From an uncultured Ignavibacteria bacterium (GTDB taxonomy: Bacteria > Zixibacteria > MSB-5A5 > DSPP01), in the NCBI GenBank assembly GCA_964607165.1, contig CAZSIT010000003.1:78384-142383 (forward strand): a stretch of DNA of 64,000 bases, given 5' to 3'. Below, piece by piece: positions 18,301 to 49,874 of the stretch. Under the pieces are notes generated by a model. That model was not told where the DNA came from, ran no database searches, and worked only from the letters and a program-made list of their open reading frames with translations. The position numbers were made by a program, and so were the translations under genes. The first letter of the stretch is position 1, and every line of letters starts with the position of its first letter.

Positions 18301-19290
18301 TCACTTCAGCAAGTTTACGTTCGCCGACAGTCCAACCTGTAAATTCAACTTTGCCACTTGCTGAATCCCATTCACCTTCTGGTAAACCGGCAGCTGGGCG
18401 TAGCTATAAGCAGAAAAAGCTTCACCGAACTGGAAACTGGCGCCGGGGCTTAAGAAAATCCACGTTCCACCGGTGTTGGAGCGGAACTCGCCGGTCGTTC
18501 CCACATCGGCAAAGTCCTGCCAGCGGCCGTTGGCCTGAAACAAAAGCGAGAATTTGGGGAAAATCTGGTATTCCGTACCCAGGTGGGCCATTATCTGTTT
18601 TCCGAATCGGTAATCGTTTTTTCCTTTTCCATTGACCCGGTAATTCAAGCTGGCGTTTATCGGGAGAGTGCTGTAAAGCCCTCCAGCCAGCGTGCGCACA
18701 CTTGCAAGCGGCAGATGCAAGTTCATTCCAAAAAAGCCGTCCCACGAGCCAGTGCCCGGCTGGATGGTCACTTCTGCTTCTTCGGTCCCTTCGTCGTTTT
18801 TTACGTCGGTAACTCCCGTTGGGGTTTTAATTCCCGCCAATAGGCTCAACTCGCCGGTCGAATTGGCAGCGGAAAAGGCCATCGAATACTGACCGCTTAC
18901 CGTCACATCCCCCAGCCCATCGAAATGAAAGGTTTCCAGTGAGCTATCCTCAATGTGGCTGTGGTCGCGGATGATGAAAGGGACTTCCACGCTCACTCCC
19001 AACGAACGGGTAAGGCCGTATTGGGCCGCCAAAAGGGCGCGCTGGTTTTTGGTCTGCACCTCGTCGTGGGGATTTGGAAGCGCGCCGACAAACGATTTTT
19101 TGGAGCCGACGTTAATCTGGTTCTCGTTGATGTACTCGTGCGAAAGCTGGAGCTGCAACAGCCCCTTGCTGAAGCCGCGGTGGGTGTTCAAAGGACAAAC
19201 CGCCGCGCCGCAGCTGGCACCGGCGGTTTTGATTGAAACTCCGACGCAAAAAGTCAAAAACAATAATAAAAGAAAATTTTTTCTTTTCAT
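18301..19290 (-). CDS. Putative outer-membrane beta-barrel protein
   Basis: Signal peptide MKRKNFLLLLFLTFCVGVSIKTAGA, alternating beta-strand-like pattern, aromatic-rich strands. Family is uncertain; it resembles the transporter / MetA-pathway-like OM family only by general features. Confidence 0.7.
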   Translation of the reverse strand: MKRKNFLLLLFLTFCVGVSIKTAGASCGAAVCPLNTHRGFSKGLLQLQLSHEYINENQINVGSKKSFVGALPNPHDEVQTKNQRALLAAQYGLTRSLGVSVEVPFIIRDHSHIEDSSLETFHFDGLGDVTVSGQYSMAFSAANSTGELSLLAGIKTPTGVTDVKNDEGTEEAEVTIQPGTGSWDGFFGMNLHLPLASVRTLAGGLYSTLPINASLNYRVNGKGKNDYRFGKQIMAHLGTEYQIFPKFSLLFQANGRWQDFADVGTTGEFRSNTGGTWIFLSPGASFQFGEAFSAYSYAQLPVYQKVNGIQQVAKLNLQVGLSANVNLLK

Positions 19291-19369: not shown

Positions 19370-19798
19370 TTAAGCGGGAGGAGGATGAAAGACGGGATTT
19401 TGGAAGTCCGTTTTTAAAGCCGCAGATTCAACCGGCTCGAAATAGGATGCTTGGACGAAACGGAGAATTTCGCTGTTTCCCGTTACATTACCAAAATTTT
19501 TATCAGCCGTTGGTACGGGAACACTTTTTGCCGGGTTGCAGTCAGCGGCATAAAGGCAACAGGTTTCATTGCTTGAAGAAGGCTGTGTTGGGCTATTTGA
19601 TGGCGAGTAACACATTTCACATTTGGCCTCTTGGCCGTCCGGGCCGCTGTGGTCGCAGCAGCATTTTTTGTTCTGGCAAACCCCGCCGTTTTTTTGGGTT
19701 TGTGACTTGACGCCGGCTACGACAAAAATTAGGTCGCACTGGCTAAAAATAAAACTGGCAAGCAACAGGGTTGGAACCATCTTAGCAAACGGCTTCAT
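19370..19798 (-). CDS. Hypothetical secreted Cys-rich protein
   Basis: N-terminal hydrophobic signal (MVPTLLLASFIFSQC). Cys cluster ..GGVCQNKKCCCDHSGPDGQEAKCEMC..ETCCLYAADC... Sits directly upstream of the OM barrel on the same strand. Confidence 0.55.
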   Translation of the reverse strand: MKPFAKMVPTLLLASFIFSQCDLIFVVAGVKSQTQKNGGVCQNKKCCCDHSGPDGQEAKCEMCYSPSNSPTQPSSSNETCCLYAADCNPAKSVPVPTADKNFGNVTGNSEILRFVQASYFEPVESAALKTDFQNPVFHPPPA

Positions 19799-19866: not shown

Positions 19867-21306
19867 TTAACAGGGAAACGGATTGCCCAAAAAGACGGTG
19901 TTGAGCAGAATCACCGGGTCGGGAGGGTTGGGAGTGCCGGAGCAGTCGAAATCGCAGGCGGCTGTGCCGGCAGGGGGGGCGATTCCCAGAAAAACGCAAT
20001 TCAACAACAGCACCACGTCGGCGGAGGTTAAAACGCCATCGCCATTCAAATCTCCTCTCAAAAAAATTATCCGGCGCAATGAGCCTGTGTTGGGAGCAAA
20101 GTTGATAAACTGTTGGAGCCAATATAGTGCCCCGTCCGGGCCGACTTGAAAATCGCCGCCGGAAACCAGGCCGGCGGCCCAGGTGGTGTCATTGGGTTGT
20201 CCCGGCACGGGAGGGGCAAAATTCCAGACCGAGCCCGATTTTTTAATCCGGCGCATAAAACCCTGATAGTAGTCGATGTAAAAATAGTCGCTGTTGTATT
20301 CCGCCGGAAAGTTGTAAAAATTAGGCCCGTTTGTGGGGCGATATAAACCGGCGGAGATTATCGAGGCGGTGAATCCCGAGCGGTCGTAATAGATAATCGG
20401 CGCAATAAAGCTTCCGTTGCCTGAACCGCCCGGTTCGCTACATCCGCCGACCACACGCACCATAGGACCTTCCCTAAACGGCCAGCCAAAGTTTTCGCCG
20501 CCGGAACATTCGTCGGCTTCTTCATAGTTGTTCTGACCGACGTCAGCGATGTAAAGCTTACCGGTTTGGGGGTCAACGTTAAAACGGAACGGATTGCGCA
20601 GGCCGCAGCACCAGGCCAGCCGGGCGTTATCTGAACCGGGGAAAGGATTATCGGACGGAATCAACAATGATTTGAGGGCTGGACCGCTGCCGGGTTGGGG
20701 CAGGCTATCCACCGAAATACGCAGAATCACTCCTTTGAGTGAACTGGAATCCTGCGCTTTACAAAAATCGGCATCTTCTCCCAGCGAAGCGTAGAGCCGT
20801 CCATCCGTGCCAAAGCGCAAGGTCCCGCCGTTGTGATTGCTGGCGTTGTCGGGAATATCGGTGATGATGTTATAGCGGCTTCCCAGAGAAAGATTGTGAC
20901 TGTTCGGATTGGACAAATCCCCGGTAGCGGTGAACATCGCGATGTAAATCGTAGAGGTGCCGGTGTGGTCGAAATAGACGTAAACATACGGTCGGGACGG
21001 CCACTGGGGATCAATGGCAATGCCCAAAAGCCCTTGCTCGTTACCGATCGTATTCACGTCCGCAATCGTTGTAATCGGGTCGGTGGTGCTTATCGCTCCA
21101 TTAACCACCATCCGGATTTTTCTGGTTTTCTGCTCGGTGAAAAGTATCCGCCCATCCGGCAGAAAAGCGAAAGAGGATGGCTGGGATAAACCGGGTTCGA
21201 TTACCTGATCGTAAAAACCGGTAGGGACGGTGGCGGCGGTTAAAAAACTTTTAAGACAAAAGACGAGAATAACAGTTGTGCTGAAGATTCCAGTTGTCTT
21301 TTTCAT
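19867..21306 (-). CDS. PQQ-dependent (soluble glucose/sorbosone-type) sugar dehydrogenase with dockerin-like C-terminal module
   Basis: Signal peptide. Blocks ..[11 protein letters not shown].., ..[15 protein letters not shown].. and ..[29 protein letters not shown].. are typical of the SGDH beta-propeller. C-terminus is [46 protein letters not shown]. Confidence 0.88.
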
Positions 21307-21348: not shown

Positions 21349-22171
21349 TCAGCAGGGAAACGGTTGCCCAAAGAAGATTGCGAGCAATTCAAGAACCACG
21401 TCCGCCGGAGTGAACAGCCCATCACAATTCACGTCACACAATTCCGTGCCGCCTTCTGGGGGAATGCCCAGAAAAGTACAGTTCATAAGCAAAATTGCAT
21501 CTTCGGCAGTCAAAGCACCATCCATATTCAAGTCACCTTTGTTTACGACCGTAATAACGCCTTTGACGAAGTTGACGGGTACGTCGGTGCCTTGCGAATC
21601 GATGAAACGAATAATTCTGGTCGGTAAACCGACCACCGAATCCAATGTATTCCGAGGAATTGTCACAGAATCTAACTCAAATTGGCCTGGGAAGGATAGT
21701 ATTGTATCAAATTTGATGTCAACAAATGGCAGGCGGCTGGGGTTAGGGCCAATCGGAGGTGAATCAATCCCCGGCTCAGCTATGGTTGTGATACCAAAGC
21801 TGTCAGGACTATTGCTATGATAGTAGGAAAAATTGGGAATTCTGGTCGGAAAAGTCGGCTCACCAAAAGGCCCCGGCGGAATCAGAAAGTTAAAAACCCC
21901 TGAAAAAAATCTTGTGTCGCTGCAATTAACAATGCGGGAGAGAGTAGCATAGGCCCCGGCGGAAATCGACTTTGTTACTATGAGGTAGAATAATCATGCT
22001 CACACTATCTTTGTTTGTAATCCAGACCCGCACTTTCAGCACTGCCGATTGGCACGGCCCGGCCTCGGGGAAAACAGTTTTGGATTCGATGATGATGGAA
22101 TCGCGGGGGTCGGGGGTGGCGGAGGCAATAGTTGCCCCCAAGAGAATTAAACCGGCGAGGAGGGTTTTCAT
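21349..22171 (-). pseudogene. Frameshifted paralog of the 22305-23093 gene (cohesin-like + dockerin-like protein)
   Basis: The N-terminal ORF 21926-22171 matches the neighbour in its first 34 aa. The homologous reading frame continues in another frame (..AYATLSRIVNCSDTRFF...NFVKGVITVVNKGDLNMDG...FGQPFPC). A one-nt indel near 21970 is inferred by hand alignment. Confidence 0.7.
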
Positions 22172-22191
22172 CTTCGGCTTTTCCTTTCCGA

Positions 22192-22223
22192 CTAAAGGTA
22201 AGCGTGAACAGGAGTTTAGTCAA
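22192..22223 (-). promoter_or_regulatory. Candidate promoter of the frameshifted copy (TTGACT-17 nt-TACCTTTAG)
   Basis: On the minus strand: TTGACT, 17-nt spacer, then TAccTTTag, which resembles the TAnnTTTG -7 box. About 20 nt upstream of ATG 22171. Confidence 0.35.
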
Positions 22224-22255
22224 GGAATTTCGGAAACTTTTTGGTGTGTGGTAGT

Positions 22256-22271
22256 CGAGGCTTTAGCCTCG
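22256..22271. repeat. GC hairpin CGAGGC-ttta-GCCTCG in duplicated spacer
   Basis: Perfect 6-bp stem with 4-nt loop. T-run follows on the plus strand, A-run precedes on the minus strand. Confidence 0.6.
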
Positions 22272-22304
22272 GATTTTTCTAAGAAAGGGGGAGGGGTTGG
22301 AAAA

Positions 22305-23093
22305 TCAGCAGGGAAACGGTTGCCCAAAGAAGATTGCGAGCAATTCAAGAACCACGTCCGCCGGAGTGGATAGCCCATCGCAGTTCACGTCGCATAGTTC
22401 AACCCCGCCGTCCGGCGGGATGCCTAGAAAGGTGCAATTCAAAAGCAACACTCCATCTTCTGCAGTCAAAGTGCCATCCATATTCAAGTCACCTCTGTTA
22501 ACAACAGTGATTGTGCCTTTGACGAAGTTGACATTGACTGTTTTGCCCTGAAGGGTAATGAACTCAATCGTTCTATTGGGTGGAATGGTTACTGAATCCA
22601 ATTCAAATTGGCCGGGGAATGAAAAAACAGTGTCGAATTTGATATTCAACAGAGGAGTACGGGTAAGAGTGGGTGGTAATTCACTGCACTCAATCGGGTC
22701 ATAAGTTCCCGTGAACATGAACGAGTCGGGCGGGTTGCTATGGTAACGTGAAAAATCGGGGACACGGTTTCCCAACGGCGGACAGTCACTGGCGTCGGGC
22801 GGGTACAGGAATTCAAAGACGGTTGAGCTGACCCTCGTTGCGCTACAATTGGCTGGGCGAGAAATTGTGGCGTAGGCATTGCCGGTTAAGGTTTTTGACT
22901 CGAAAGGAAGAGTGACATTGCCTAAGGTATCCTTGTTGGTAATCCAAACGCGCACTTTCAACACGGCCGATTGACACGGCCCGGCTTTGGAAAAAACAGT
23001 TTTGGATTCGATGATAATAGAGTCGCGGGGGTCGGGGGTGGCGGAGGCAATAGTTGCCCCCAAGAGAATTAAACCGGCGAGGAGGGTTTTCAT
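22305..23093 (-). CDS. Secreted protein: cohesin-like N-terminal beta-sandwich (inferred) + dockerin-like C-terminal module
   Basis: Signal peptide MKTLLAGLILLGATIASA. ..IIIESKTVFSKAGPCQSAVLKVRVWITNKD..VTLPFE.. and ..LLNIKFDTVFSFPGQFELDSVTIP..VNVNFVKGTITV resemble the first and last strands of cohesins. C-terminus is GDLNMDGTLTAEDGVLLLNCTFLG..CDVNCDGLSTPADVVLELLAIFFGQPFPC. Confidence 0.8.
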   Translation of the reverse strand: MKTLLAGLILLGATIASATPDPRDSIIIESKTVFSKAGPCQSAVLKVRVWITNKDTLGNVTLPFESKTLTGNAYATISRPANCSATRVSSTVFEFLYPPDASDCPPLGNRVPDFSRYHSNPPDSFMFTGTYDPIECSELPPTLTRTPLLNIKFDTVFSFPGQFELDSVTIPPNRTIEFITLQGKTVNVNFVKGTITVVNRGDLNMDGTLTAEDGVLLLNCTFLGIPPDGGVELCDVNCDGLSTPADVVLELLAIFFGQPFPC

Positions 23094-23113
23094 CTTCGGC
23101 TTTTCCTTTCCGA

Positions 23114-23145
23114 CTAAAGGTAAGCGTGAACAGGAGTTTAGTCAA
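23114..23145 (-). promoter_or_regulatory. Candidate promoter of 22305-23093 gene (TTGACT-17 nt-TACCTTTAG)
   Basis: Identical to the element at 22192-22223. Confidence 0.35.
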
Positions 23146-23176
23146 GGAATTTCGGAAACTTTTTGGTGTGTGGTAG

Positions 23177-23194
23177 CCGAGGCTTTAGCCTCGG
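23177..23194. repeat. GC hairpin CCGAGGC-ttta-GCCTCGG in duplicated spacer
   Basis: 7-bp stem. Copy of the 22256-22271 hairpin with one substitution that lengthens the stem. Confidence 0.6.
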
Positions 23195-23226
23195 GTTTTT
23201 CTAGGAAAGGGGGAGGGGTTGGAAAA

Positions 23227-24843
23227 TCAGCAGGGAAAAAGCGTTCCCAGGAAAATGACGTTTAGCATAACCACAATATCGGATGAGGTGGCAAGGCCAT
23301 CGCAGTTGACGTCGCAAAAAGCAAAGCCCGACTGCGGCTCGATTCCCAAAAAGATGCAGTTTAAGGCCAGCACTACGTCAACGGGACTTAAGGCGCCATC
23401 GCCGTTCAAATCGCCTTTGATACCATTAAAATTGAGATAACAACGGGAAGTGGCCCCGCAAAGGTCGGTGATTTGGACGCAGGCAGAGAAAATCCCGGTT
23501 TGAAAAGAAGTCGGCGTCCACTGCACCAAACCGGAAGGAGAAACGGTCAAGCCGTTTGGGCCGGAAAGGAGCGTGAAAGTTAGATTCCCGGCGTCGGCAG
23601 GGTCGGGGTCGCTTCCATTGAGCTGTAGTGAGAGAGGAACGTTGGGCGGAGCAGAGATAGCACTACTTGGGCAGTTGGATACGGTTGGGGCGGCATTGGT
23701 CACCACCAATTGAAATTCGCAGGTGTCGGCAGCCGGGCCGGGATTGCAGCTTCCAAAGCGGTCAAAAACTTTTACTCTAACGGTTTGGGGCGAAGCGGTA
23801 ATATCGGTGCAGGAAGTTTGGTAAGACCAGTTGCCGGAAGAATTAGTCGTCCCCGGGCCGTTTAATTGGACAGTGGTAAGCACATCGCTGGCGTCCGGGT
23901 CGGAAAGCACAAGCTGGTTGGTTGCCAAAGCGCCGTGAGAAAAAGTTATCGTTGCCGGGGTAGAGCACACGGGAGGGTTGTCTATCACGTTTAAACTAAA
24001 AGAACATTCTGCGGCGATGCTGGAAGGATTGCAGCCTCCGCAGTCGCCGATGGCGCGCACGGTAATCGGAATGCGGCCAAGAGGACACTGGCCGGAGAAA
24101 CCGTAAAGACCGCTCGATAGATTAATCGTTCCCGGTCCGGAAACGACCGACCAAGTGACCGGGCTGCAGGGAGTGTCGAAGTCATAACTGAAAGTCCGCC
24201 CGTAAAGGAGATTGGAAGAGGCGGGACAATTTGGTGGAACATAGGGTGAAGCAGGGTTGCAAACGTTTATGAAACCTTTGACAAAGCTAACTTCGATTTT
24301 GTTGCCGTTCCGGTCAACAAATTGGATAGTGGAGGCGGGAGCAATTAAGGAGGAATCCAATTGCACCTGTCCCAGGCCGGAGGCGCCGACCGAATCAAAT
24401 TTGATATCCAGGAGCGGAACTCTGGTTGCGTTTTGTGGAACCTTAGAAGCGGCGTCAGTAGGGTCGTGGGTGCCGGCCCAGAGAAAAGTATCGGGGGAGT
24501 TGCTGTGGTAGTTGTTAAAATTTCCAATTCGAGTGGGAAGCTGCCCGGCCGGGAGCAAAATGTCAAATACCGCCGCCGCGGTGCGTGCGCCGCAGCCAGC
24601 TGGCCGAGAAAGCGTTGCATAGCCCGCCCCGGCGGTGATTTTCGATTCAAGTGGCAGAGTAATATTTGCCAACGAATCTTTGTTGGTGATATAGACTCTG
24701 ATTTTCAGTCCGGCCGAAGCGCAAGCGCCGCTTATCGGCTGCACGGTTTTGGATTCGATGATGACCGAATCGCGGAAGTCGGGATAAGATTTTGCAATGG
24801 TTGTTAAAGCAAGCAGGAAAAGCACCGTCAGCCCGATTTTCAT
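23227..24843 (-). CDS. Secreted protein: cohesin-like N-domain + Cys-rich Ig-like (He_PIG/cadherin-like) repeats + dockerin-like C-terminal module
   Basis: The N-terminal 190 aa are paralogous to 22305-23093 (..FRDSVIIESKTVQPISGACASAGLKIRVYITNKDSLANITLPLESK.., ..LLDIKFDSV..IEVSFVKGFINV). Middle repeats carry ..LLSGPNGLTVSPSGLVQWTP... C-terminus is GDLNGDGALSPVDVVLALNCIFLG..CDVNCDGLATSSDIVVMLNVIFLGTLFPC. Confidence 0.85.
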   Translation of the reverse strand: MKIGLTVLFLLALTTIAKSYPDFRDSVIIESKTVQPISGACASAGLKIRVYITNKDSLANITLPLESKITAGAGYATLSRPAGCGARTAAAVFDILLPAGQLPTRIGNFNNYHSNSPDTFLWAGTHDPTDAASKVPQNATRVPLLDIKFDSVGASGLGQVQLDSSLIAPASTIQFVDRNGNKIEVSFVKGFINVCNPASPYVPPNCPASSNLLYGRTFSYDFDTPCSPVTWSVVSGPGTINLSSGLYGFSGQCPLGRIPITVRAIGDCGGCNPSSIAAECSFSLNVIDNPPVCSTPATITFSHGALATNQLVLSDPDASDVLTTVQLNGPGTTNSSGNWSYQTSCTDITASPQTVRVKVFDRFGSCNPGPAADTCEFQLVVTNAAPTVSNCPSSAISAPPNVPLSLQLNGSDPDPADAGNLTFTLLSGPNGLTVSPSGLVQWTPTSFQTGIFSACVQITDLCGATSRCYLNFNGIKGDLNGDGALSPVDVVLALNCIFLGIEPQSGFAFCDVNCDGLATSSDIVVMLNVIFLGTLFPC

Positions 24844-25417: not shown

Positions 25418-26392
25418 TTACAGGCTGGCGGAGGAATTCAGGGGGCAGCCGTCGCCGTCCACCTTGGTTCCGCGCGGAGTATCAGGACACAAATCCAACC
25501 GGTCGAGAATGCCGTCGGCATCCTGATCAATTGAGCAGCCGTCGGCATCCACCACTTCGCCGGGTCGCGTGTTGTTGTTCAAATCACGTTTGTCGGGGAC
25601 TCCGTCACCGTCCGAGTCGGCATCCTTGCCAAAGTAAAAGTTCAAACGGGTGTGGAAATTGGTGACGGCGTTGAAGAGCCCGTAGCCGTTTTTGCTTTTG
25701 ATGTTTTGGTCGCCTTGGAATTTTGAGAGGATTTTGGTGTTGTAATATAAATCCCCGCCAAAATCGAGGGCGACAAATTTGTTCAGGAAAATTTCCCCGC
25801 CGGCGCCGAAGGATAAAATTATGCGTTGGTCCTTTGCGGTGAAGATCTGGCCGTTCAAATCTTCCAGCATTTTCAGCTGTCCGGAAGCGTCGGTCATTTT
25901 CCAGCTGTTGTAGCCCAGCCCGAAACTTATATAATTATCAAATTTCCAGAACGAGCGGGAGGGGCGTTGGAGGGATAAAACGTAGAAGTTGTTGACCAGC
26001 CGTTCGGAGCTGTCGGTGGTGGCAAAGGTGAAACCGGCGGTTTGATTGGGGCCGATGCTTGCCCGGCGGGATTGAGCCTGGAAGTAATGGAAGGCAAGAG
26101 CCTGGTCGTTTAACTCCCGTTTGAGAATAAACCCTTTGGGAAAAGCGACCGTCCAGGCATCGGCGTTTTCGGTCAAAACCGGCTTGGAGAGGCCCGATTC
26201 CAGCGACAGAGCTGAATGGCCCAATAAAGTCGAATGCCAGGAGATAGCATTGGCAGATGAATTGGGCAAAAACAAGCCCAAAGCTGCCAGTATGGCCTGA
26301 AAAGCGTATCTGTTTATGCGTTTCTTCAGCACTCTATTAGCATTATCGGCCTTTTGGGGGTAAATTTTCACCCCTTTAGTTTCCGATACCAT
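25418..26392 (-). CDS. Outer-membrane protein with C-terminal thrombospondin type-3 (Ca-binding) repeats, lacking an OmpA_C domain
   Basis: Hydrophobic signal region (..AFQAILAALGLFLPNSSANA) and a beta-rich body. C-terminus is DADSDGDGVPDKRD..VVDADGCSIDQDADGILDRLDLCPDTPRGTKVDGDGCP. The true start may be internal (GTG 26332). Confidence 0.75.
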   Translation of the reverse strand: MVSETKGVKIYPQKADNANRVLKKRINRYAFQAILAALGLFLPNSSANAISWHSTLLGHSALSLESGLSKPVLTENADAWTVAFPKGFILKRELNDQALAFHYFQAQSRRASIGPNQTAGFTFATTDSSERLVNNFYVLSLQRPSRSFWKFDNYISFGLGYNSWKMTDASGQLKMLEDLNGQIFTAKDQRIILSFGAGGEIFLNKFVALDFGGDLYYNTKILSKFQGDQNIKSKNGYGLFNAVTNFHTRLNFYFGKDADSDGDGVPDKRDLNNNTRPGEVVDADGCSIDQDADGILDRLDLCPDTPRGTKVDGDGCPLNSSASL

Positions 26393-26566
26393 TAATAAAG
26401 GGCTTCGGTGGAGCCCCGGAAGGAGGGTGAGGTCGATTTTTTTACTTGCAACCAGCTTTTAACTTCGTATTATTGTGGGTGGGAGTGGTTGGAATTTTAC
26501 AGCAAGTGGTTGTCACCAACGAGTGTGATAGTTGATAATATCAGGGGTTATAGGTTTGGAGGATTG

Positions 26567-29467
26567 GTGAAAAAGCGCCTTTTTTGGTTTACAGTTTTAC
26601 TTCTCGGAATTTTTTCTTCTGCTTTTGCGGTCGCGCCGCATCCCGATTTGGTCAAAAAATTAAAAGAAACCGGAGAGTGGGACGAGTTTTTGGCGCATTA
26701 TAAAAGCTTGGGGGACTTTGACCAGCCAACTTCCCATCGGTATCGTTTTACCCTTTCCCTAAGAACGACCGCTGGCGCGGTTCCGCCCGATACCTTGAAG
26801 GCGGTGGTGATTTATGCCTATCCGTCCGACCGCCCGCCTTCCGCGGACGGGATAAACGTCAGTCGGGCGAAATTGGACTCGATTCTGTTTATCTCCAACC
26901 CGACTGGCACGGTGACCGATTATTATAAAGAAATTTCTTATGGTCAGACGGTAGTGGTTGGAACCGTTTTCGGACCTTATCAGCTTCCGGGGACGAATGC
27001 CGCTTACACATTTGGTGCTTATGGTATTCCCGCTACTAATTTTACCACGGATGCCATTCGGGCGGCGGATTCCGCGGGGGTTGATTTTTCACAGTTTGAC
27101 GCCGACGGGGATGGGGTTGTGGATGCGCTCTTTATCGTTCATAGCGGCCCAGGAGCGGAGGAAACCGGGCGGCTTACAGATATCTGGTCGCACGCTTCGA
27201 GCATCGCGCCACAGAAGAGAGATGGAAAGTGGCTAAGCGATTATTCCATCGAACCGGAGCAGCAGTCCGGGCCGATACCGATACAGATTGGTGTCTTTTG
27301 CCACGAAGCCGGCCACGCTCTTTTTGGCCTGCCCGATTTGTATGACACTGATGGCACTTCGCAAGGAGCGGGGGCGTGGTGTTTGATGAGCTCGGGCAAC
27401 TACAACAACAGCAGCAAAACCCCCACGCATATGTCGGCATGGTGCAAAAAACAGGTGGGGTGGCTGACTCCCATCAGTTTATCTGCTAATCAAAACAACG
27501 TTTCTCTTCCCGCCGTGGAGTTTACTCCGACCATTTATCGGCTTTGGACCAACGGCACAGGCGGATCCGAATATTTTCTTTTGGAAAACCGCTATCGACG
27601 CGGTTTTGACGCTTACAATCCCGGGGGCGGGCTTTTAATCTGGCACATCGACGAAGCAGCCGGGAGCAACAACAACGAAAACCGGTATATGGTCGGTTTG
27701 ATGCAAGCAGATGGTCTGCGGAATCTGAATTTAAATGCAAATCGGGGAGATGCGGGGGACCCATTTCCGGGCAACACTAATAATCGAAATTTTGATGAAT
27801 TTTCCAATCCAAACAGTAAGAAGAATGTTCCCGTTCAGGCCGCGCAGGTGGCGGTATTTAACATTTCCAACGCCGATTCGGTGATGACCGCCGATATGGA
27901 GGTTACGTATGGAAGGCCAAGGGTGACTTCTTTCAGCCCCACGCTGAACGAGATTTCAGGAAACGGGAACGGTGTCCCCGATCCGGGAGAAACTATTACT
28001 TACTATTTTTCCTTTATAAATGCCTGGCTTGCCACGCCTAACTGGAACGTTTTAGTTCGATGCAACGATACAGCCATTCATTTTGCCGACAGCACGGCTT
28101 TGATAAGTTCTTTGGTTGGGTTGGGGGCCTCCACTTCCACATCGCCTGACCCGGTTACTTTTACTGTTTCTTCCGGCATCGATCGCTCTAAGCTGGACAG
28201 CTTTTTCGTTTATGCCTGGAACTTTGACAGCTCCTACACCTATCAAACCGCCTACGTCCAGCAAATCGGGCCGACGCAGATTCTGATTGTGGATGACGAC
28301 CACGGGCGGGCGCTGGAGAATTACTACAAGCTATCATTCGACACAGTTTTGGTGCCGACCCGCATCTGGAGCGTGACAGTGCGGGGCGTTCCGCCGGCGG
28401 AAAGCCTTTCGCTCTACCGCTACGTGGTTTGGTACACGGGCAACGATTCGACTTCACTTTTGAATAGCTCGCGTATTGCCTCCTTGTCCGGCTATATGAA
28501 CAGTGGAGGGCGTCTATTTTTGACCGGCCAGGGAATGGCTCAATCGCTTTGGAGCACGGCGGATTCCGTATTCCTGCGGAACTATTTTCACTGCCGGTTC
28601 ACCAACGCCCAGCCCGTATCCGTCTATGCCGAAGGGGTGAGCAGCGAGCCGATTTCCGATAGTGTCCGAATGGTCTTGTTGGCCGGTGACGGGGCCGGCA
28701 ACCAAACTCAAGTGGATCGTCTTACTTTTGTCGATGGCCGGGCGGACAAGCTTTTTACTTATACCAGCACCAAGGGAGATACGACCGGGCCGGTAGGGGG
28801 GGTGGCCTATGCCGACTCAATTTATCGAGCGGTTTTTCTGGGATTTGGTTTTGAGGCAGTTAATTCATCCGCGCCTTCTGTTCATAGCGCAAAGACGCGC
28901 TCTTTTGTTTTGCGCCGGATATTGGACTGGTTTGACAGCGCCAGCCCGACTGGACTGGCGGTTCCCTTTATCTCCTCTCTGCCGCAAACGTTTTCCTTTT
29001 CAGCCATCAGTGGCGGAGCTTTGCCTCCGGCGCAGAATTTAAACATTGAAAACACCGGCGGAGGCACACTGGTCTGGACGGCGGCGGAAAATCCGGCGGT
29101 CGGCTGGCTTTCGATAACTCCGAGCAGCGGCACTGCCGCGCCCGTTTCCAATGTCTCTATTTCGATAGATTCGACCAATTTGGTTCCGGGAACGTATATC
29201 GATACGATTGTCATCAGCTCTCCGGGAGCTTTTAATAACCCGCACAAGACCGTGGTCACCTTTACGGTGAACGCCGGGCGGGGCGATATGGACCAGGATG
29301 GGGTTTTAGAATTGGCGGATGTGGTGTTGCTGTTGGACTGTACTTTTCTGGGCGTAGGCACCTGTCCGCTTTCCATTGCCGACATCAACTGCGATGGAAT
29401 TTTAACCTCTGCCGATGTTGTGTTGCTTCTTATCGAATTGTATTACATTACGCCTCCGCCTTGTTAA
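26567..29467 (+). CDS. M6 (immune inhibitor A-like) secreted metalloprotease with Ig/BACON-like domain and dockerin-like C-terminal module
   Basis: GTG 26567 is preceded by GGAGG and gives signal peptide VKKRLFWFTVLLLGIFSSAFA. Zinc site is ..FCHEAGHALFGLPDLYDTDG.., with ..GGGLLIWHIDE... C-terminus is [53 protein letters not shown]. The track start 26408 was rejected because it would leave only 15 nt to the divergent gene. Confidence 0.88.
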   Translation: MKKRLFWFTVLLLGIFSSAFAVAPHPDLVKKLKETGEWDEFLAHYKSLGDFDQPTSHRYRFTLSLRTTAGAVPPDTLKAVVIYAYPSDRPPSADGINVSRAKLDSILFISNPTGTVTDYYKEISYGQTVVVGTVFGPYQLPGTNAAYTFGAYGIPATNFTTDAIRAADSAGVDFSQFDADGDGVVDALFIVHSGPGAEETGRLTDIWSHASSIAPQKRDGKWLSDYSIEPEQQSGPIPIQIGVFCHEAGHALFGLPDLYDTDGTSQGAGAWCLMSSGNYNNSSKTPTHMSAWCKKQVGWLTPISLSANQNNVSLPAVEFTPTIYRLWTNGTGGSEYFLLENRYRRGFDAYNPGGGLLIWHIDEAAGSNNNENRYMVGLMQADGLRNLNLNANRGDAGDPFPGNTNNRNFDEFSNPNSKKNVPVQAAQVAVFNISNADSVMTADMEVTYGRPRVTSFSPTLNEISGNGNGVPDPGETITYYFSFINAWLATPNWNVLVRCNDTAIHFADSTALISSLVGLGASTSTSPDPVTFTVSSGIDRSKLDSFFVYAWNFDSSYTYQTAYVQQIGPTQILIVDDDHGRALENYYKLSFDTVLVPTRIWSVTVRGVPPAESLSLYRYVVWYTGNDSTSLLNSSRIASLSGYMNSGGRLFLTGQGMAQSLWSTADSVFLRNYFHCRFTNAQPVSVYAEGVSSEPISDSVRMVLLAGDGAGNQTQVDRLTFVDGRADKLFTYTSTKGDTTGPVGGVAYADSIYRAVFLGFGFEAVNSSAPSVHSAKTRSFVLRRILDWFDSASPTGLAVPFISSLPQTFSFSAISGGALPPAQNLNIENTGGGTLVWTAAENPAVGWLSITPSSGTAAPVSNVSISIDSTNLVPGTYIDTIVISSPGAFNNPHKTVVTFTVNAGRGDMDQDGVLELADVVLLLDCTFLGVGTCPLSIADINCDGILTSADVVLLLIELYYITPPPC

Positions 29468-33959: not shown

Positions 33960-36900
33960 ATGAAAAAAATTGTTTTGAGTTCATTGATGTTAGTGACGGT
34001 TGTATCGGCTCAAGCCGAGTGGAAAGCCAACCGCTGGCAGCAATGGGTGGACTACACTGTTGAGGTTACTATAGACGCCAAGAATAAAATTTTGACTGGC
34101 ACAGAAAAATTGGTTTATACCAATAACTCTCCGGACACGCTTCGCACAGTTTATTTCCACTTGTATCTCAACGCCTTTCAGCCGGGAAGTTACACCGATC
34201 TGCGCCTGCGGCAGTTTGGGTTTTTTGACACCAAGGATTTGCCGCTCAAAGAACAGGGAGCCGAGTCGCTTTCTTACTTTGCCGTCTCCGGCGTGGAAAC
34301 GCCCTTTACTATGGACAACACCATTATGAAAGCGGATTTGCCCCAGCCGCTTTTGCCGGGGAAATCGGTCACTTTTGACATTAGATTCAAAGATAAAATT
34401 CCGCCCGATGGAGATAGAATGGGCTTTCGAGGAAAGCATATCGATATGGGCCAGTGGTATCCACGTATGGCGGTTTATGACCATAAAGGCTGGCACGCCG
34501 ACCAGCATATGGGACACGAGTTTTATGCCGATTACGGGCGGTTTAACGTGAGCGTTACCCTGCCCAAAGAATACATTCTGGGGCACACGGGGAAATTGAT
34601 GAACGAGGAGGAGCTTTTTCCGGGCGGCTTGCCGGTGCCCGGGGGGGATACGGTTCTGGTAGATATTCTCAAAATCTACAAGGAGCGGCAAAAAAAAGAA
34701 AAAGCAGATACTTTGGCCGGTGATTCCACGGCGCAAGGGACAGAGTCGCTGAAGAAAATGGCGGGGGGACGCCCGAACCGAAAGCAAAACGATGAGGATG
34801 GGAACTCCCTTAGCCGTCGGGAAATGCGCCGGGGCGGGTCGGGGGGCGATAATCGGAGGAGCAGAGAAAGGGGCGAAGCGCGCGATTCATCCAGTGGGAA
34901 AGACAGTGTGGAAGTGCGAACCTGGAAAATGTTCGCCGATACGGTTTTTGATTTCGCCTTTGCCGCCGACCCCGGCTACCTCTGGGACCGGGCGCAATGG
35001 AACGGAATTATCATCAATTCGCTCTATACCCCCGACCGGAAACGTTTCTGGGCCGATTCGGGAGCGGTATATACCCGCTTCATTATCAAATTCTACTCGG
35101 AAACTTTTGGAATGTGGCCCTACCCACAGTTCACTTCCTGTGTGGGCGACGTGGGGGGTGGGATTGAATATCCCCAGATGACCATTATAACGCGCCGCTC
35201 AGGGCGGGATTTCTCCCACGGCCTTTTCTCCATCCTGGCGCACGAAATCGGGCACAACTGGTTTTACGGACTTATCGGCAACAACGAAACGTATGAGGCG
35301 TTTTTGGATGAGGGATTCACCTCCTTTGCCACCTGTTTGGTGATGGAGGACCGCTATGGACGGTATGAAAATGCCAATGCCTGGGGAAAGTGGTATCAGA
35401 AAAAGTTTTTTTACAATGATGATGAGCGGCAGGGGGAACAGCGAAGCTACATCCGCTTTTCCAAAACGGGCGCGGAAGAGCCGATAGATACCCATTCCGA
35501 CCAGTTCTTGGGAGGCGGAGCTTATAACATTGCCGTTTATCAAAAAACCGCTTCGATGCTGTTTATGCTGCAATACACGCTGGGAGACTCGGTTTTTGAC
35601 CGGGCGATGAAGGAGTATTACCGGCAATGGCATTTCCATCACCCGTATCGCGACGATTTTGTGTCCTCGATGGAGAAATCGTCCGGCCGGCATTTGGAAT
35701 GGTTTTTCCGGCAGTGGCTGGATAGAACTTTCACGGTAGACTACGCTCTGGACAAAGTTAAATCAAAGAAAAACGGCAAGAGTTATACGGCAGAAGTGAA
35801 AGTTAAACGCAAGGGACGAGCGATAATGCCTTTGGATTTGGATTTGCGGCTGGAAAACGGGCAGGTGGTTAACCAAAAGATTCCGGTCGATTTTTGGCAG
35901 AATAGCGAAGCAGAGCGAACCTTCAGCTACGAAGTCCTGGCCAAGGTTCGTTCGGCGGAACTGAATCCGGATTCGCGGATTGCCGACGTTAATCGGCTGA
36001 ATAACACCTATCCGGTGCCGCGGGTGCGCACCAATTTTGACCCGCCGCGAATGTTTTTTCCATCCACACCAACGCGCAATCCGATTGACGCCTATCAAAT
36101 CGTCTGGCGGCCGAATATCTGGTATAACCGCGTCGATTTCTTGAAATTGGGTCTTAATTTTTCCGGCAGTTACATCGGAGTTGACCATAATACTAACTTT
36201 GAGCTCTGGGGGGGAACTAAGAGCGGAAATTTTGACTTCGATTTAAGATATAATTCCCGGCTGTATGCCTTTGGGCCGCGCTGGAACTGGAATTTTTCGG
36301 CCTACAACGTGGAAGGGAGGCAGGGAGGAAACGTCGGCTTAACGAAACAGCTGGGACAAACCCGCTTTTTCGGGGGAGGGGCGCCCAAACAGGTTTCGGC
36401 GGGGTTCAGCTTTTCTCGTCTCTCCAAAGGCGAGTACTTGCCGGCTTTCTCGCAGTACGGTTTGGGGCGGGTAGCGAATCTGTATTTCAACTTAAGCACC
36501 AGTTGGACGAAAGGAAAAATTTCTTCCCAATTTGACGGCGGTCTGACCACCAGTTTGCCCCGCTCCCGTTTCGCGTACAGCAAACTCTGGCTGGAGTTGA
36601 ACAATACGCTGGATTTAATAAAAAAATTCCCGACCTCGTTTAGGATTTTTGCCGGAACTTCCGATGGTCTTGTGCCTTTGCAAAATCGGTATTATCTGGC
36701 AACCGCGTCACCCTCGGAAATTTTCGCTTCCCGCTGGTATCGTTCCAAGGAAACGTTGCCGGAAGAATGGAAAAACTCCGGGCATCTGTATCCACCCGGC
36801 GGCGGTGATTTGCACGGTTATCTTTTCGCCAATCGGGATGCCCGCCACATAGCTGCCTTGAACGCGCGGGTTGGTTTTGACAACCCATTAACCTGGTCGT

Positions 36901-37193
36901 TGGATAAATTGAAAATCGGATTGGGCGAAGTTAGCAAAAATTTGAATGCGATTACCACCGAAGCATTTTTGGATTTCGGACAGGGGTGGAACTCCACCAA
37001 AACCCCGCCGTCGGCCGATTTTCTGGCCGATTTCGGGCTGGCCGCCAGCTACCGCATTCCTTACCAATGGCTGCGAAACGGTCTGGGAAACGAGTCGATT
37101 CGCTTTTACGTCCCACTCTATCTTTCCGACCCCCCCTCTGGTGAAAGGCCTTGGAAATTTCGCTGGCTTTTTGCCTATTCGGTGAAATTCTAA
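33960..37193 (+). CDS. M1-family zinc metallopeptidase fused to a C-terminal Omp85-like beta-barrel
   Basis: Signal peptide. ..GGGIEYPQMTII.. (GxMEN-equivalent), HEIGHNWFYG and ..AFLDEGFTSF.. (HEXXH-18-E). C-terminal ~390 aa are beta-rich with ..GGGDLHGYLF.. and end ..FAYSVKF. Confidence 0.85.
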   Translation: MKKIVLSSLMLVTVVSAQAEWKANRWQQWVDYTVEVTIDAKNKILTGTEKLVYTNNSPDTLRTVYFHLYLNAFQPGSYTDLRLRQFGFFDTKDLPLKEQGAESLSYFAVSGVETPFTMDNTIMKADLPQPLLPGKSVTFDIRFKDKIPPDGDRMGFRGKHIDMGQWYPRMAVYDHKGWHADQHMGHEFYADYGRFNVSVTLPKEYILGHTGKLMNEEELFPGGLPVPGGDTVLVDILKIYKERQKKEKADTLAGDSTAQGTESLKKMAGGRPNRKQNDEDGNSLSRREMRRGGSGGDNRRSRERGEARDSSSGKDSVEVRTWKMFADTVFDFAFAADPGYLWDRAQWNGIIINSLYTPDRKRFWADSGAVYTRFIIKFYSETFGMWPYPQFTSCVGDVGGGIEYPQMTIITRRSGRDFSHGLFSILAHEIGHNWFYGLIGNNETYEAFLDEGFTSFATCLVMEDRYGRYENANAWGKWYQKKFFYNDDERQGEQRSYIRFSKTGAEEPIDTHSDQFLGGGAYNIAVYQKTASMLFMLQYTLGDSVFDRAMKEYYRQWHFHHPYRDDFVSSMEKSSGRHLEWFFRQWLDRTFTVDYALDKVKSKKNGKSYTAEVKVKRKGRAIMPLDLDLRLENGQVVNQKIPVDFWQNSEAERTFSYEVLAKVRSAELNPDSRIADVNRLNNTYPVPRVRTNFDPPRMFFPSTPTRNPIDAYQIVWRPNIWYNRVDFLKLGLNFSGSYIGVDHNTNFELWGGTKSGNFDFDLRYNSRLYAFGPRWNWNFSAYNVEGRQGGNVGLTKQLGQTRFFGGGAPKQVSAGFSFSRLSKGEYLPAFSQYGLGRVANLYFNLSTSWTKGKISSQFDGGLTTSLPRSRFAYSKLWLELNNTLDLIKKFPTSFRIFAGTSDGLVPLQNRYYLATASPSEIFASRWYRSKETLPEEWKNSGHLYPPGGGDLHGYLFANRDARHIAALNARVGFDNPLTWSLDKLKIGLGEVSKNLNAITTEAFLDFGQGWNSTKTPPSADFLADFGLAASYRIPYQWLRNGLGNESIRFYVPLYLSDPPSGERPWKFRWLFAYSVKF

Positions 37194-37204
37194 GAGTACA
37201 AGTG

Positions 37205-38947
37205 ATGAAAACCCTCTTTTTATTTCTTGTCGGGACTCTATTATCCATGCCTGTTTCAGCCGAAGTGAAAATCGCTTTTGGCGTGGAAGAAAGGCTGGCC
37301 AGGCAGGACTCCGTGAAAGTGTGGGTATTTTTTAAAGATAAAGGGGTTGAATTCCAGGATAACGTTCTTTTGCGAAAGGCGGCGGAAGCGACTGTAAGCA
37401 ATGAAAGCCTGCGGCGGAGGGTTAACCGCTTGGGAAACAGGCCGCTTTTTGATTATTCGGATTTGCCTTTGAATCGAGTGTATCTGGAGCAGATTTTGAA
37501 CGCCGGCTGTCTAATCGACAACGTTTCGCGCTGGCTGAATGCCGCTTCGGTTTGGATGGATAAAACAGCCTTGGACAAAGTGAAACAATTATTCATCGTT
37601 GATTCGGTGAAATTGGTGCTTTCGGCAAAGAGATTGGAACCGAAGCCAACCGGAGAGCCCTTATTCCGTCCGGTTCAGCCAGACAGTTTCGTTTTGAATT
37701 ATGGGCCATCGCTGGACCAGCTGCAACAGATAAACGTGCCAATTTTGCATCGGTTGGGTTATTCGGGGAAGGGGGTAAGAGTGGCTATGTTTGACACCGG
37801 TTTTTTGTTATCCCATATAGCGTTTGATTCCTTGCGGCTGACCGGGAGAATTTTGGCCACGCGGGATTTTATTCACGACGATACGGACGTGGTAGATTTA
37901 AACGATGCTGACGGGGCTGCACAGCGGTTTCACGGAACTTTGACCTTTTCTGCAATGGCTGGATTTACCGAGGGTTCGCTTGTTGGGCCGGCATTTGGGG
38001 CATCTTTCCTTCTGGCAAAAACCGAAGTTGTGGCGACCGAGACGCTCTTGGTAGAGGAAGACAATTGGGTGGCAGCTTTGGAATGGGCGGACAGTATGGG
38101 GGCGGAAGTCGTTTCCTCCTCGGTGGGTTATTTCATCGGGGATGACGGAATCGGCTATACTCAAAGTCAGATGGATGGGAACACGGCGGTCACGACAGTG
38201 GCGGCGGATATGGCAATGGCTAAAGGGATTTTGGTGGTAAATGCAGCTGGAAACGAGCGAGGCAACTCCTGGGGCACGCTTATCGCTTCGGCTGATGGCG
38301 ATTCGGTTTTGGCGGTAGGCGCGGTCAACAACCTGGGACAGATTGCCAGCTTCAGTTCGCCCGGGCCCTCGGCGGATGGTCGGATTAAACCGGATGTCTG
38401 CGCGCGTGGGGTTGCCACGGTTTGCGCCTCCTCTTTTTCCAATACAAGCTTTGGATTTGCATCGGGAACTTCCCTTTCAACCCCACTGGTAGCGGGGGCG
38501 GCGGCTTTGCTTTTTGAAATCGATACGACTTTGTCGCCGTTTGCGGCCTACACCCGTTTACGTCAAACGGCAAGTCAGGCCTCGAGTCCGGATAATGATT
38601 TGGGGTATGGGATTATCAATGCGCTTTCGGCTTCAGGGTTGGCCTCGCAGATAGTGAACGGTGGGAGAGAGCCGATTGAAATTAAGGTTTTTCCGAACCC
38701 CTCTTTTGGACGGATGATACTGCGGATTAGCACGCAGAACAGACGGAACGTGAAAGTGGCGATTTTTTCGACAGCCGGGGAAGTGGTCAGGCAATTGCAG
38801 GTCGAGACTTTCGGCAGTATGGTGCCCTCGGATTTGGTTTGGAATGGGGAGAATCAGAAAGGGGAACCAGTCTCCGCAGGGATTTATTTTGGAGTGGTAA
38901 AAGCGGGTGAAACCGAGGAAAGTTTTAAATTGGCGGTGGTGCATTAA
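37205..38947 (+). CDS. S8 subtilisin-like serine protease with T9SS-type C-terminal sorting domain
   Basis: ATG 37205 gives signal MKTLFLFLVGTLLSMPVSA. Triad blocks VAMFDTGF, HGTLTFS and SGTSLSTPLVAGAAALL. CTD is ..IKVFPNPSFGRMILRI..VAIFSTAGEVV..SAGIYFGVVKAG..KLAVVH. Confidence 0.9.
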   Translation: MKTLFLFLVGTLLSMPVSAEVKIAFGVEERLARQDSVKVWVFFKDKGVEFQDNVLLRKAAEATVSNESLRRRVNRLGNRPLFDYSDLPLNRVYLEQILNAGCLIDNVSRWLNAASVWMDKTALDKVKQLFIVDSVKLVLSAKRLEPKPTGEPLFRPVQPDSFVLNYGPSLDQLQQINVPILHRLGYSGKGVRVAMFDTGFLLSHIAFDSLRLTGRILATRDFIHDDTDVVDLNDADGAAQRFHGTLTFSAMAGFTEGSLVGPAFGASFLLAKTEVVATETLLVEEDNWVAALEWADSMGAEVVSSSVGYFIGDDGIGYTQSQMDGNTAVTTVAADMAMAKGILVVNAAGNERGNSWGTLIASADGDSVLAVGAVNNLGQIASFSSPGPSADGRIKPDVCARGVATVCASSFSNTSFGFASGTSLSTPLVAGAAALLFEIDTTLSPFAAYTRLRQTASQASSPDNDLGYGIINALSASGLASQIVNGGREPIEIKVFPNPSFGRMILRISTQNRRNVKVAIFSTAGEVVRQLQVETFGSMVPSDLVWNGENQKGEPVSAGIYFGVVKAGETEESFKLAVVH

Positions 38948-49867: not shown

Positions 49868-49874
49868 GAGGAGG

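Follow-up and report, generated by a model that had tools for sequence, protein, structure and literature searches.

A tandem array of candidate adaptor scaffoldins with a predicted, sequence-cryptic cohesin fold in an uncultured Zixibacteria-like bacterium

In a 64-kb stretch of DNA from an uncultured bacterium (contig CAZSIT010000003.1; the whole stretch analysed is referred to as the window) we examined three tandem genes on the minus strand, termed here A, B and C. Their products combine a domain of ~180 aa, which follows directly on the signal peptide and which we call the N-domain, with a C-terminal module of ~64 aa. The former is predicted to adopt a cohesin fold and the latter a dockerin fold, and we consider it fairly probable that A and B act as monovalent adaptor scaffoldins in a non-cellulosomal cohesin–dockerin system, as would C if living cells carry it in intact form. 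Gene A (23227–24843) is an intact open reading frame (ORF) of 538 aa, made up of a signal peptide (aa 1–19), the cohesin-fold domain (aa ~20–197, nt 24253–24786), three Cys-rich immunoglobulin (Ig)-like repeats (aa ~198–472, nt 23428–24252) and the dockerin (aa 473–538, nt 23230–23427). Gene B (22305–23093) is likewise an intact ORF and encodes 262 aa, namely a signal peptide (aa 1–17), the cohesin-fold domain (aa 18–199, nt 22497–23042) and the dockerin (aa 200–262, nt 22308–22496); taken as a whole protein, it matches neither a Pfam nor an NCBIfam family. The ends of the signal peptides were read from the sequence (…ASA/TPD and …AKS/YPD). In B and C there is no linker at all between the final strand of the cohesin and the first Ca2+ loop of the dockerin (…ITVVNRGDLNMDG…). 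The Cys-rich Ig-like repeats that a sequence-only reading of this locus had noted in the largest paralogue were recovered in domain scans, as the insert of A (aa ~197–475) matches Pfam Big_9 (E 5e-10) and He_PIG (E 5e-8); on alignment it resolves into about three repeats of ~90 aa, with 14 Cys.

Gene C (21349–22171), the third paralogue, was delimited by three-frame translation and by tblastn against B. Its frame shifts after codon 63 from one extra nucleotide near 21982, leaving an N-terminal ORF of 81 aa (21926–22171) with the remainder in the +1 frame, ending at 21349; deletion of the extra nucleotide gives a 273-aa product with a cohesin-fold domain and a dockerin (nt 21352–21540). Three tandem genes sharing the N-domain had been described from the sequence alone, and the three copies are indeed present, but the third is not an intact ORF. 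The frameshift coincides exactly with the end of a 5′ block homogenized with B, and gene C is either a pseudogene or the result of a sequencing or assembly error inside the repeat. Programmed frameshifting was considered and rejected: no slippery motif was seen at the shift site, both frames run into stops downstream of it, and its position is at the edge of the gene-converted block. B and the corrected C are secreted proteins with exactly one cohesin and one dockerin, and A is built likewise, with the addition of three Ig-like spacer domains. The two 133-bp spacers on the minus strand, between A and B (23094–23226) and between B and C (22172–22304), are homologous and conserve the same perfect hairpin (C/TCGAGGCTTTAGCCTCGG), present as CCGAGGCTTTAGCCTCGG at 23177–23194 and as TCGAGGCTTTAGCCTCGG at 22255–22272. 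Because the T-run sits on the strand opposite the genes, these hairpins were rejected as canonical intrinsic terminators of A, B or C.

A search of the window with the N-domain of B (aa 18–199; tblastn) returned exactly three copies, namely B itself, A (E 6e-53, 52 % identity) and C (E 1e-52, with the match split across two frames). A wider search with the N-domain yielded 24 relatives, which are mostly metagenome proteins of ~260 aa, several of them named Zixibacteria by NCBI; in all 24 the signal peptide is followed directly by (T)PDPRDS(I/V)IIESK, with which the domain opens. The AlphaFold2 model of the N-domain, built from an alignment of 24 sequences, is all-β (predicted local distance difference test score, pLDDT, 90.6; predicted template modelling score, pTM, 0.87; all five models ≥ 79.9) and has the nine-stranded jelly-roll β-sandwich and topology of cohesins, at a length ~40 aa greater than that of classical type I cohesins. 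When this model was compared with the Protein Data Bank (PDB) using Foldseek, cohesins took ranks 1–49 without exception, with types I, II and III all represented (E 2e-7 to 3e-3), and the first match that was not a cohesin appeared at rank 50. The top match was 2xdh (E 2e-7), a non-cellulosomal cohesin of Archaeoglobus fulgidus, and target-normalized template modelling (TM) scores to cohesins were mostly 0.44–0.68, being lower for multi-domain chains. The sequence-only reading had proposed a cohesin-like N-domain from the motifs IIIESKTV..ITNKD.., IKFD.V and V.FVKG.I.V, a proposal that the structure check supports; the motifs themselves are present as quoted and belong to the columns that are invariant, or almost so, across the wider family.

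Using the last 63 aa of B as the query (tblastn), we were able to identify exactly five copies of the C-terminal module in the window, all within 10 kb of each other. These are the ends of A, B and C, together with those of a dehydrogenase and an M6 protease that flank the array on either side, as had been stated earlier. The AlphaFold2 model of the module (pLDDT 92.9) contains helices at residues 15–27 and 48–60 and a short connecting helix (DSSP), and its best 32 PDB matches were all dockerins (Foldseek; TM 0.54–0.86, 17–33 % identity), with a root-mean-square deviation (rmsd) of 1.8–2.6 Å for most; the accompanying E-values are modest (1e-2 to 1.9) because the domain is only 66 aa long. The module consists of a duplicated segment of ~22 residues, in which an EF-hand-like Ca2+ loop (D1, N/D3, D5, D12) is followed by a helix. 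Both DxNxDGxxxxxD loops are intact in the sequences of A, B and C, reading DLNMDGTLTAED and DVNCDGLSTPAD in B, with the same pattern in A and C. The Pfam Dockerin_1 model (PF00404; cut-off 22.9 bits) passes on A (24.0 bits), scores below the cut-off on C (21.8 bits) and the dehydrogenase (17.6 bits), and finds no match in B or the M6 protease. In relatives it reaches 29.4 bits (P0033), and one family fragment is named ‘dockerin type I repeat-containing protein’ by NCBI. Additionally, four Cys are conserved in the module, one in helix 1, one before loop 2, one inside loop 2 and one as the last residue (…PFPC motif), and these probably form two disulfides. The second loop is a variant in the dehydrogenase dockerin (DFDCSG…PD), and the second Ca2+ loop has been lost in one dockerin sub-family.

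The flanking dehydrogenase, one of two putative cargo proteins, is encoded on the minus strand (19867–21306) and is a secreted β-propeller enzyme of the pyrroloquinoline quinone (PQQ)-type glucose/sorbosone dehydrogenases (Pfam GSDH, E 9e-36; TIGR03606; hereafter GSDH); its C-terminal dockerin (nt 19870–20058) matches that of B at E 1e-19. The other putative cargo protein is an immune inhibitor A-like M6 metalloprotease encoded on the plus strand (26408–29467; Peptidase_M6, E 1.8e-17; BACON_2; TIGR03296, 203 bits), whose C-terminal dockerin (nt 29279–29464) matches that of B at E 8e-15; translation probably starts near 26561, where the signal peptide VKKRLFWFTVLLLGIFSSAFA is encoded.

This cluster was also found in other genomes. 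The locus L003/L004 comes from another metagenome, has independent assemblies in two data sets and shares ~86–87 % nucleotide identity with the window over A and GSDH; here an orthologue of A and a single cohesin–dockerin gene, both intact, lie between the dockerin-tagged M6 gene (968 aa in L003) and the dockerin-tagged GSDH gene. The locus L007, from the Zixibacteria metagenome-assembled genome (MAG) PMV_8.32, contains six successive cohesin genes, including one with two cohesins and a dockerin, and then dockerin-tagged GSDH and M6 genes whose products are 77 and 60 % identical, respectively, to those of the window; the same MAG has three tandem cohesin–dockerin genes at L008. At L015 there are four cohesin–dockerin genes, one of them in the 531-aa Ig form, followed by a dockerin-tagged GSDH gene, a gene for a CARDB–dockerin protein and two more cohesin–dockerin genes. 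GSDH orthologues with 74–77 % identity thus stand directly after the arrays of L007 and L015, and orthologues of gene A with the same architecture of 531–538 aa are present in L003, L007 and L015. As such, the order of an Ig-containing cohesin–dockerin gene, a variable number of plain cohesin–dockerin genes and a dockerin-tagged GSDH gene recurs in the window, L003/L004, L007 and L015, with the dockerin-tagged M6 gene present in the first three. A cellulosome-style architecture with no visible glycoside hydrolase context had been suspected at the outset, and the recurrence of the cohesin–dockerin array with tagged GSDH and M6 genes in other Zixibacteria genomes bears out a context of that kind. 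The host of the window is itself Zixibacteria-like and has an outer membrane; its RpoA is 64–68 % identical to named Zixibacteria RpoA proteins. Furthermore, in two different genomes (L006, 9862–14056; L010, 9881–14154) a cohesin–dockerin gene lies immediately upstream of a gene for an M4 (thermolysin-like) protease with a dockerin. In these M4-linked pairs the dockerin of the cohesin protein has one Ca2+ loop and that of the protease has two, a contrast in sequence that is also seen in monovalent adaptors and that may be a hint of type switching.

With regard to the evolution of the array, B and C are 93 % identical over their first 58 aa, 55 % over the cohesin core and 88 % over the dockerin, and the cohesin cores of the tandem copies are 43–55 % identical. 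At the DNA level, a repeated unit (23425–22928 versus 22503–22006; 82 % nt identity) spans the 3′ end of the dockerin, the 133-bp spacer and the first ~55 codons of the next gene. The ratio of non-synonymous to synonymous substitution rates (dN/dS) between B and C is 0.08–0.13 over the 5′ block and the dockerin, and synonymous sites are saturated in the cohesin core. In L003, the cohesin–dockerin gene can be aligned with the DNA of B or C essentially only over its first ~200 nt. The array is a fast-evolving cassette, the copy number of which varies between strains; judged from these comparisons, signal peptides, spacers and dockerins appear to be homogenized between copies, and the cohesin cores appear to be old and divergent. 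The slot between A and GSDH is a hypervariable cassette (22006–23425 in the window versus 9680–10800 in L003), with two to three cohesin–dockerin copies in the former and one in the latter.

In a profile search of 1.84 billion representative proteins, 604 family members passed E ≤ 1e-3, of which 84 passed E ≤ 1e-30; the 604 are representative clusters at 50 % identity. Architectures were assigned using our own cohesin and dockerin hidden Markov models on 167 proteins, comprising the best 150 of the 604 and the relatives from the N-domain search. The counts are biased towards cohesin-plus-dockerin combinations, as the search profile contained the dockerin, and stood as follows: one cohesin followed by one dockerin in 74 of the 167 proteins, cohesin only in 51 (many of them fragments), two cohesins and a dockerin in 13, three cohesins and a dockerin, dockerin–cohesin–dockerin and similar arrangements in several, and 10 or 12 dockerin modules in two. 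Some members of the family are additionally fused to FG-GAP and Ig domains. Such modular shuffling of cohesins and dockerins across a family is typical of scaffoldin systems. The two poly-dockerin proteins are P0091 (1187 aa), with 12 tandem dockerins (Dockerin_1, E 1e-104) and a peptidoglycan-binding PG_binding_1 domain, and P0108 (1006 aa), with 10 tandem dockerins; proteins of this kind would cross-link many cohesins. A dockerin-only profile, run against a set of 5.8 billion proteins for cargo enzymes, returned short fragments only. A search of species-representative genomes matched one genome, a result that, given its narrow patterns, says little on phyletic breadth.

A connection with the type IX secretion system (T9SS) is apparent in this family. 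A cohesin is joined to a T9SS type A sorting domain (TIGR04183, 39–47 bits, cut-off 23), in place of a dockerin, in P0002, P0006, P0059, P0075 and a protein of the locus L009. P0002 is the closest relative of the B cohesin from any other contig (59 % identity); the L009 protein shares its genome, the MAG PMV_8.32, with cohesin–dockerin arrays. These tagged relatives are mostly small (313–413 aa). The window encodes a PorU sortase (43321–47247; NF033707, 680.9 bits, cut-off 420; Peptidase_C25) and, side by side with it, a PorV-family protein of 861 aa with a long N-terminal extension (47282–49867; NF033709, 199.5 bits, cut-off 90). T9SS sorting domains are carried by an M6-like protein (49854–53210; ‘T9SS-dependent M6-like inactivated metalloprotease’, 267 bits, cut-off 600) and by an S8 protease of the subtilase type (37151–38947). 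The window therefore holds two M6-type paralogues with different C-terminal tags, a dockerin in one (26408–29467) and a T9SS sorting domain in the other (49854–53210), and with paralogous proteases of both endings encoded together, we conclude that the organism uses either tag.

Other genes of the window lie close to these. The gene at 25418–26392 (minus strand) encodes a protein of 324 aa, the same length as its syntenic counterpart in L003, with a C terminus of thrombospondin type 3 Ca2+-binding repeats like those of PA1041-type anchors and TraB; the protein is a possible partner of the cluster at the outer membrane. Downstream of GSDH, also on the minus strand, there are genes for a small, Cys-rich secreted protein of 142 aa (19370–19798; 142 aa in L003 too) and for a protein of 329 aa with a signal peptide (18301–19290; 328 aa in L003), and scans of Pfam and NCBIfam gave no family match for either product. 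A 1077-aa M1-family peptidase (33960–37193) is encoded just upstream of the S8 protease, in a peptidase-rich stretch, and such a neighbourhood fits a protein-degrading lifestyle.

The analysis shows two predicted folds, the ways in which the modules are combined, a clustering of the genes that is conserved across genomes, and T9SS genes in the window; for the adaptor model that we put forward, we infer the binding of dockerins by the cohesins, partner specificity, the disulfides, localization and the anchoring route. A, B and C would be exported by means of their Sec signal peptides, each adaptor consisting of one cohesin-fold jelly-roll fused directly to one Ca2+-type dockerin. The cohesin would serve as a socket for the dockerins of secreted enzymes encoded nearby; in the window the captured partners would be the PQQ-type dehydrogenase and the M6 protease, and those of relatives would number M4 proteases and an LVIVD-repeat protein among them. 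With its own dockerin, the adaptor would then plug into another cohesin. The terminal socket would be a family member with a cohesin and a T9SS type A sorting domain, and the PorU/PorV machinery would cleave the sorting domain and attach the protein to the cell surface. If the model is right, a non-cellulolytic bacterium probably assembles proteases and a dehydrogenase outside the cell from cohesin–dockerin parts.

A number of observations weigh against this model. The cohesin assignment depends on a structure predicted from an alignment of 24 sequences, the TM scores to cohesins are moderate (0.44–0.68), and the rmsd is 5–8 Å for most matches because of ~40 aa of insertions. Searches by sequence were silent: the N-domain had no Pfam (including PF00963 Cohesin) or NCBIfam match at E ≤ 0.1, neither phmmer nor profile hmmsearch had a match at E ≤ 10 among all PDB sequences, and when the family profile was aligned to verified CipA cohesins with hhalign, the probability was 0.2 %. 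It is from this silence, set beside the cohesin matches of the modelled structure, that we regard the N-domain as a predicted, sequence-cryptic branch of the cohesin fold, detected via structure only. Moreover, the motifs of highest conservation, PDPRDSIIIESK and ITNKD, fall by position in strand 1 and in the turn between strands 2 and 3, and so appear to lie off the classical 8-3-6-5 dockerin-binding face of cohesins. With regard to anchoring, zero cohesins with a T9SS sorting domain are encoded inside the 64-kb window, which is part of a contig of 192,666 bp. The crossing of the outer membrane by dockerin proteins that have no sorting domain is a problem for every extracellular model, and the dockerin-tagged proteins may instead be periplasmic. 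The bias of the architecture counts described above is to be reckoned among these points.

The same two modules could also build a polymer, with the dockerin of one chain bound by the cohesin of the same or a sister copy to form fibres or a coat and with enzymes held on free sockets. Chains with one cohesin and one dockerin and without a linker would be sterically barred from intramolecular binding, the dockerins (88 %) and N-terminal strands (93 %) of B and C are near-identical, and arrays reach six such genes; in addition, the poly-dockerin proteins of 10–12 modules and the poly-cohesin proteins of the family search make cross-linked networks conceivable. We nevertheless hold self-assembly of this kind to be unlikely. 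Characterized proteins with both modules are adaptors in which the two differ in specificity, with no self-binding (PMC11557425), and in relatives with an M4 partner, adaptor and neighbouring enzyme carry dockerins of different types. Diverged cohesin cores (43–55 %) next to dockerins that are alike are, furthermore, a better fit to several sockets of different specificity, and an adaptor role is thus favoured over head-to-tail homopolymerization by the comparative evidence. A bolder version joins several of these elements into a hypervariable, modular network for surface display in Zixibacteria, such that an unrecognized branch of cohesins, unseen by current sequence profiles, would include T9SS-tagged members fixed to the outer membrane by PorU, upon which rigid, linker-less, disulfide-stapled cohesin–dockerin units would stack or polymerize to form fibres or a coat, carrying proteases and the PQQ dehydrogenase; we rate its chances as low.

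Of a different nature is the proposal that the N-domain is a cohesin-fold adhesin or ligand-binding domain, for glycans or proteins, and is itself the cargo, so that the dockerin and the T9SS sorting domain would be alternative address tags, directing it to the cell surface or to some further scaffold. That the same N-domain ends in either a dockerin or a T9SS sorting domain, as cargo domains do, would agree with this, as would the lack of sequence similarity to cohesins, the strongest conservation seemingly off the classical dockerin-binding face, a central part that is hypervariable between strains in the manner of surface adhesins, and the fusions to FG-GAP and Ig domains in the family. Yet bona fide cohesins, and not carbohydrate-binding modules or Ig domains, make up 49 of the 50 best structural matches; the N-domain co-occurs with dockerins, in the same chains and in neighbouring genes, across genomes; and architectures with multiple cohesins and a dockerin mirror those of scaffoldins. 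The proposal would also leave the many dockerins of these loci without a cohesin partner in any locus examined, and we regard it as doubtful. It is, finally, very improbable that the array is decaying or an artefact, made of assembly chimeras or of pseudogenes without a current function. The frameshift of C does sit exactly at the end of a highly similar 5′ block, and repeats of this sort are prone to mis-assembly in metagenomes, but A and B are intact, the L003/L004 genes are intact in independent assemblies of two data sets, the family has hundreds of intact members, and dN is well below dS between B and C over the 5′ block and the dockerin (dN/dS 0.08–0.13).

Cellulosomes, like many scaffolds in synthetic biology, are built from cohesin–dockerin pairs as their standard units. 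Should the adaptor model hold, a whole family of cohesins would have been overlooked because only structure prediction reveals it, and cohesin–dockerin assembly would extend to a phylum of uncultured soil and sediment bacteria that have an outer membrane. Its cargo would be proteases and a dehydrogenase rather than cellulases, and the assembly would be joined to surface anchoring by the T9SS. As small, linker-less and cysteine-stapled proteins, the members of the array are candidates for new orthogonal binding pairs, perhaps ones sensitive to redox conditions, and the conserved clustering provides a testable hypothesis on extracellular protein degradation by Zixibacteria. If a polymer or surface-coat network were instead to prove true, it would represent a fusion of the principles of type IX secretion and of cellulosome assembly, and would offer redox-sensitive orthogonal cohesin–dockerin pairs.

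Non-cellulosomal cohesin–dockerin pairs have reportedly been surveyed across the three domains of life, and our literature search found no work mentioning both Zixibacteria and dockerin. Monovalent adaptor scaffoldins with one cohesin and one dockerin, such as ScaC of Ruminococcus flavefaciens, are an established class (PMC11557425). Like the proteins described here, ScaC-type adaptors are secreted, non-catalytic proteins with one cohesin and a C-terminal dockerin, encoded near other cohesin and dockerin genes, and the role proposed for both is to link the dockerin of an enzyme to another cohesin, thereby switching specificity. They differ in that ScaC-type adaptors belong to Gram-positive, cellulolytic Firmicutes and have cohesins detectable by Pfam, Pro/Thr linkers and glycoside hydrolases, whereas the present proteins come from a Zixibacteria-like host with an outer membrane, have a cohesin that is invisible to sequence profiles and are linker-less. 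The four-Cys dockerin with a terminal Cys, the neighbouring PQQ dehydrogenase and metalloproteases, and the variable tandem arrays likewise set them apart. The A. fulgidus cohesin 2xdh, the best structural match of the N-domain, is again from a non-cellulolytic organism. Its source protein is said to contain both a cohesin and a dockerin, which bind to each other. The A. fulgidus cohesin–dockerin pair has been used as a working orthogonal binding pair (PMC9705933; PMC6394049). In contrast to the N-domain, the cohesin 2xdh is archaeal, recognizable as a cohesin by sequence and confined to a single locus, and the expanded family, the T9SS link and the Cys-stapled dockerin are all absent from it.

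For Candidatus Stygibacter (Cloacimonadota), a cellulosome-like system has been inferred in which peptidases carry dockerins and a scaffoldin has a conserved C-terminal domain (PMC8542988). Both systems have dockerin-tagged peptidases and a cohesin protein with a C-terminal domain for surface attachment, and in both the degradation of polypeptides or biopolymers, and not of cellulose, is proposed. The scaffoldin of Ca. Stygibacter, however, is one giant multi-cohesin protein of 3,755 aa with carbohydrate-binding modules, detected by InterPro, whereas the present system consists of many small units of one cohesin each, set in arrays, with a cohesin that is cryptic in sequence and T9SS-tagged versions that are likewise mostly small. 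Cloacimonadota and Zixibacteria belong to the same Fibrobacteres–Chlorobi–Bacteroidetes (FCB) superphylum. As for the C-terminal module, it shares with type I dockerins (PF00404; for example, Clostridium thermocellum Xyn10B and Clostridium acetobutylicum Doc0917) two repeats of ~22 residues, each a DxNxDGxxxxxD loop with a helix, as well as internal two-fold symmetry, and its model superposes on them at ~2 Å rmsd with 25–33 % identity; the four conserved Cys, and a sub-family without the second Ca2+ loop, distinguish it. Non-cellulosomal cohesin–dockerin systems were already known, and what is new here is a cohesin family that had stayed hidden, the expansion of that family in Zixibacteria and its apparent joining with type IX secretion.

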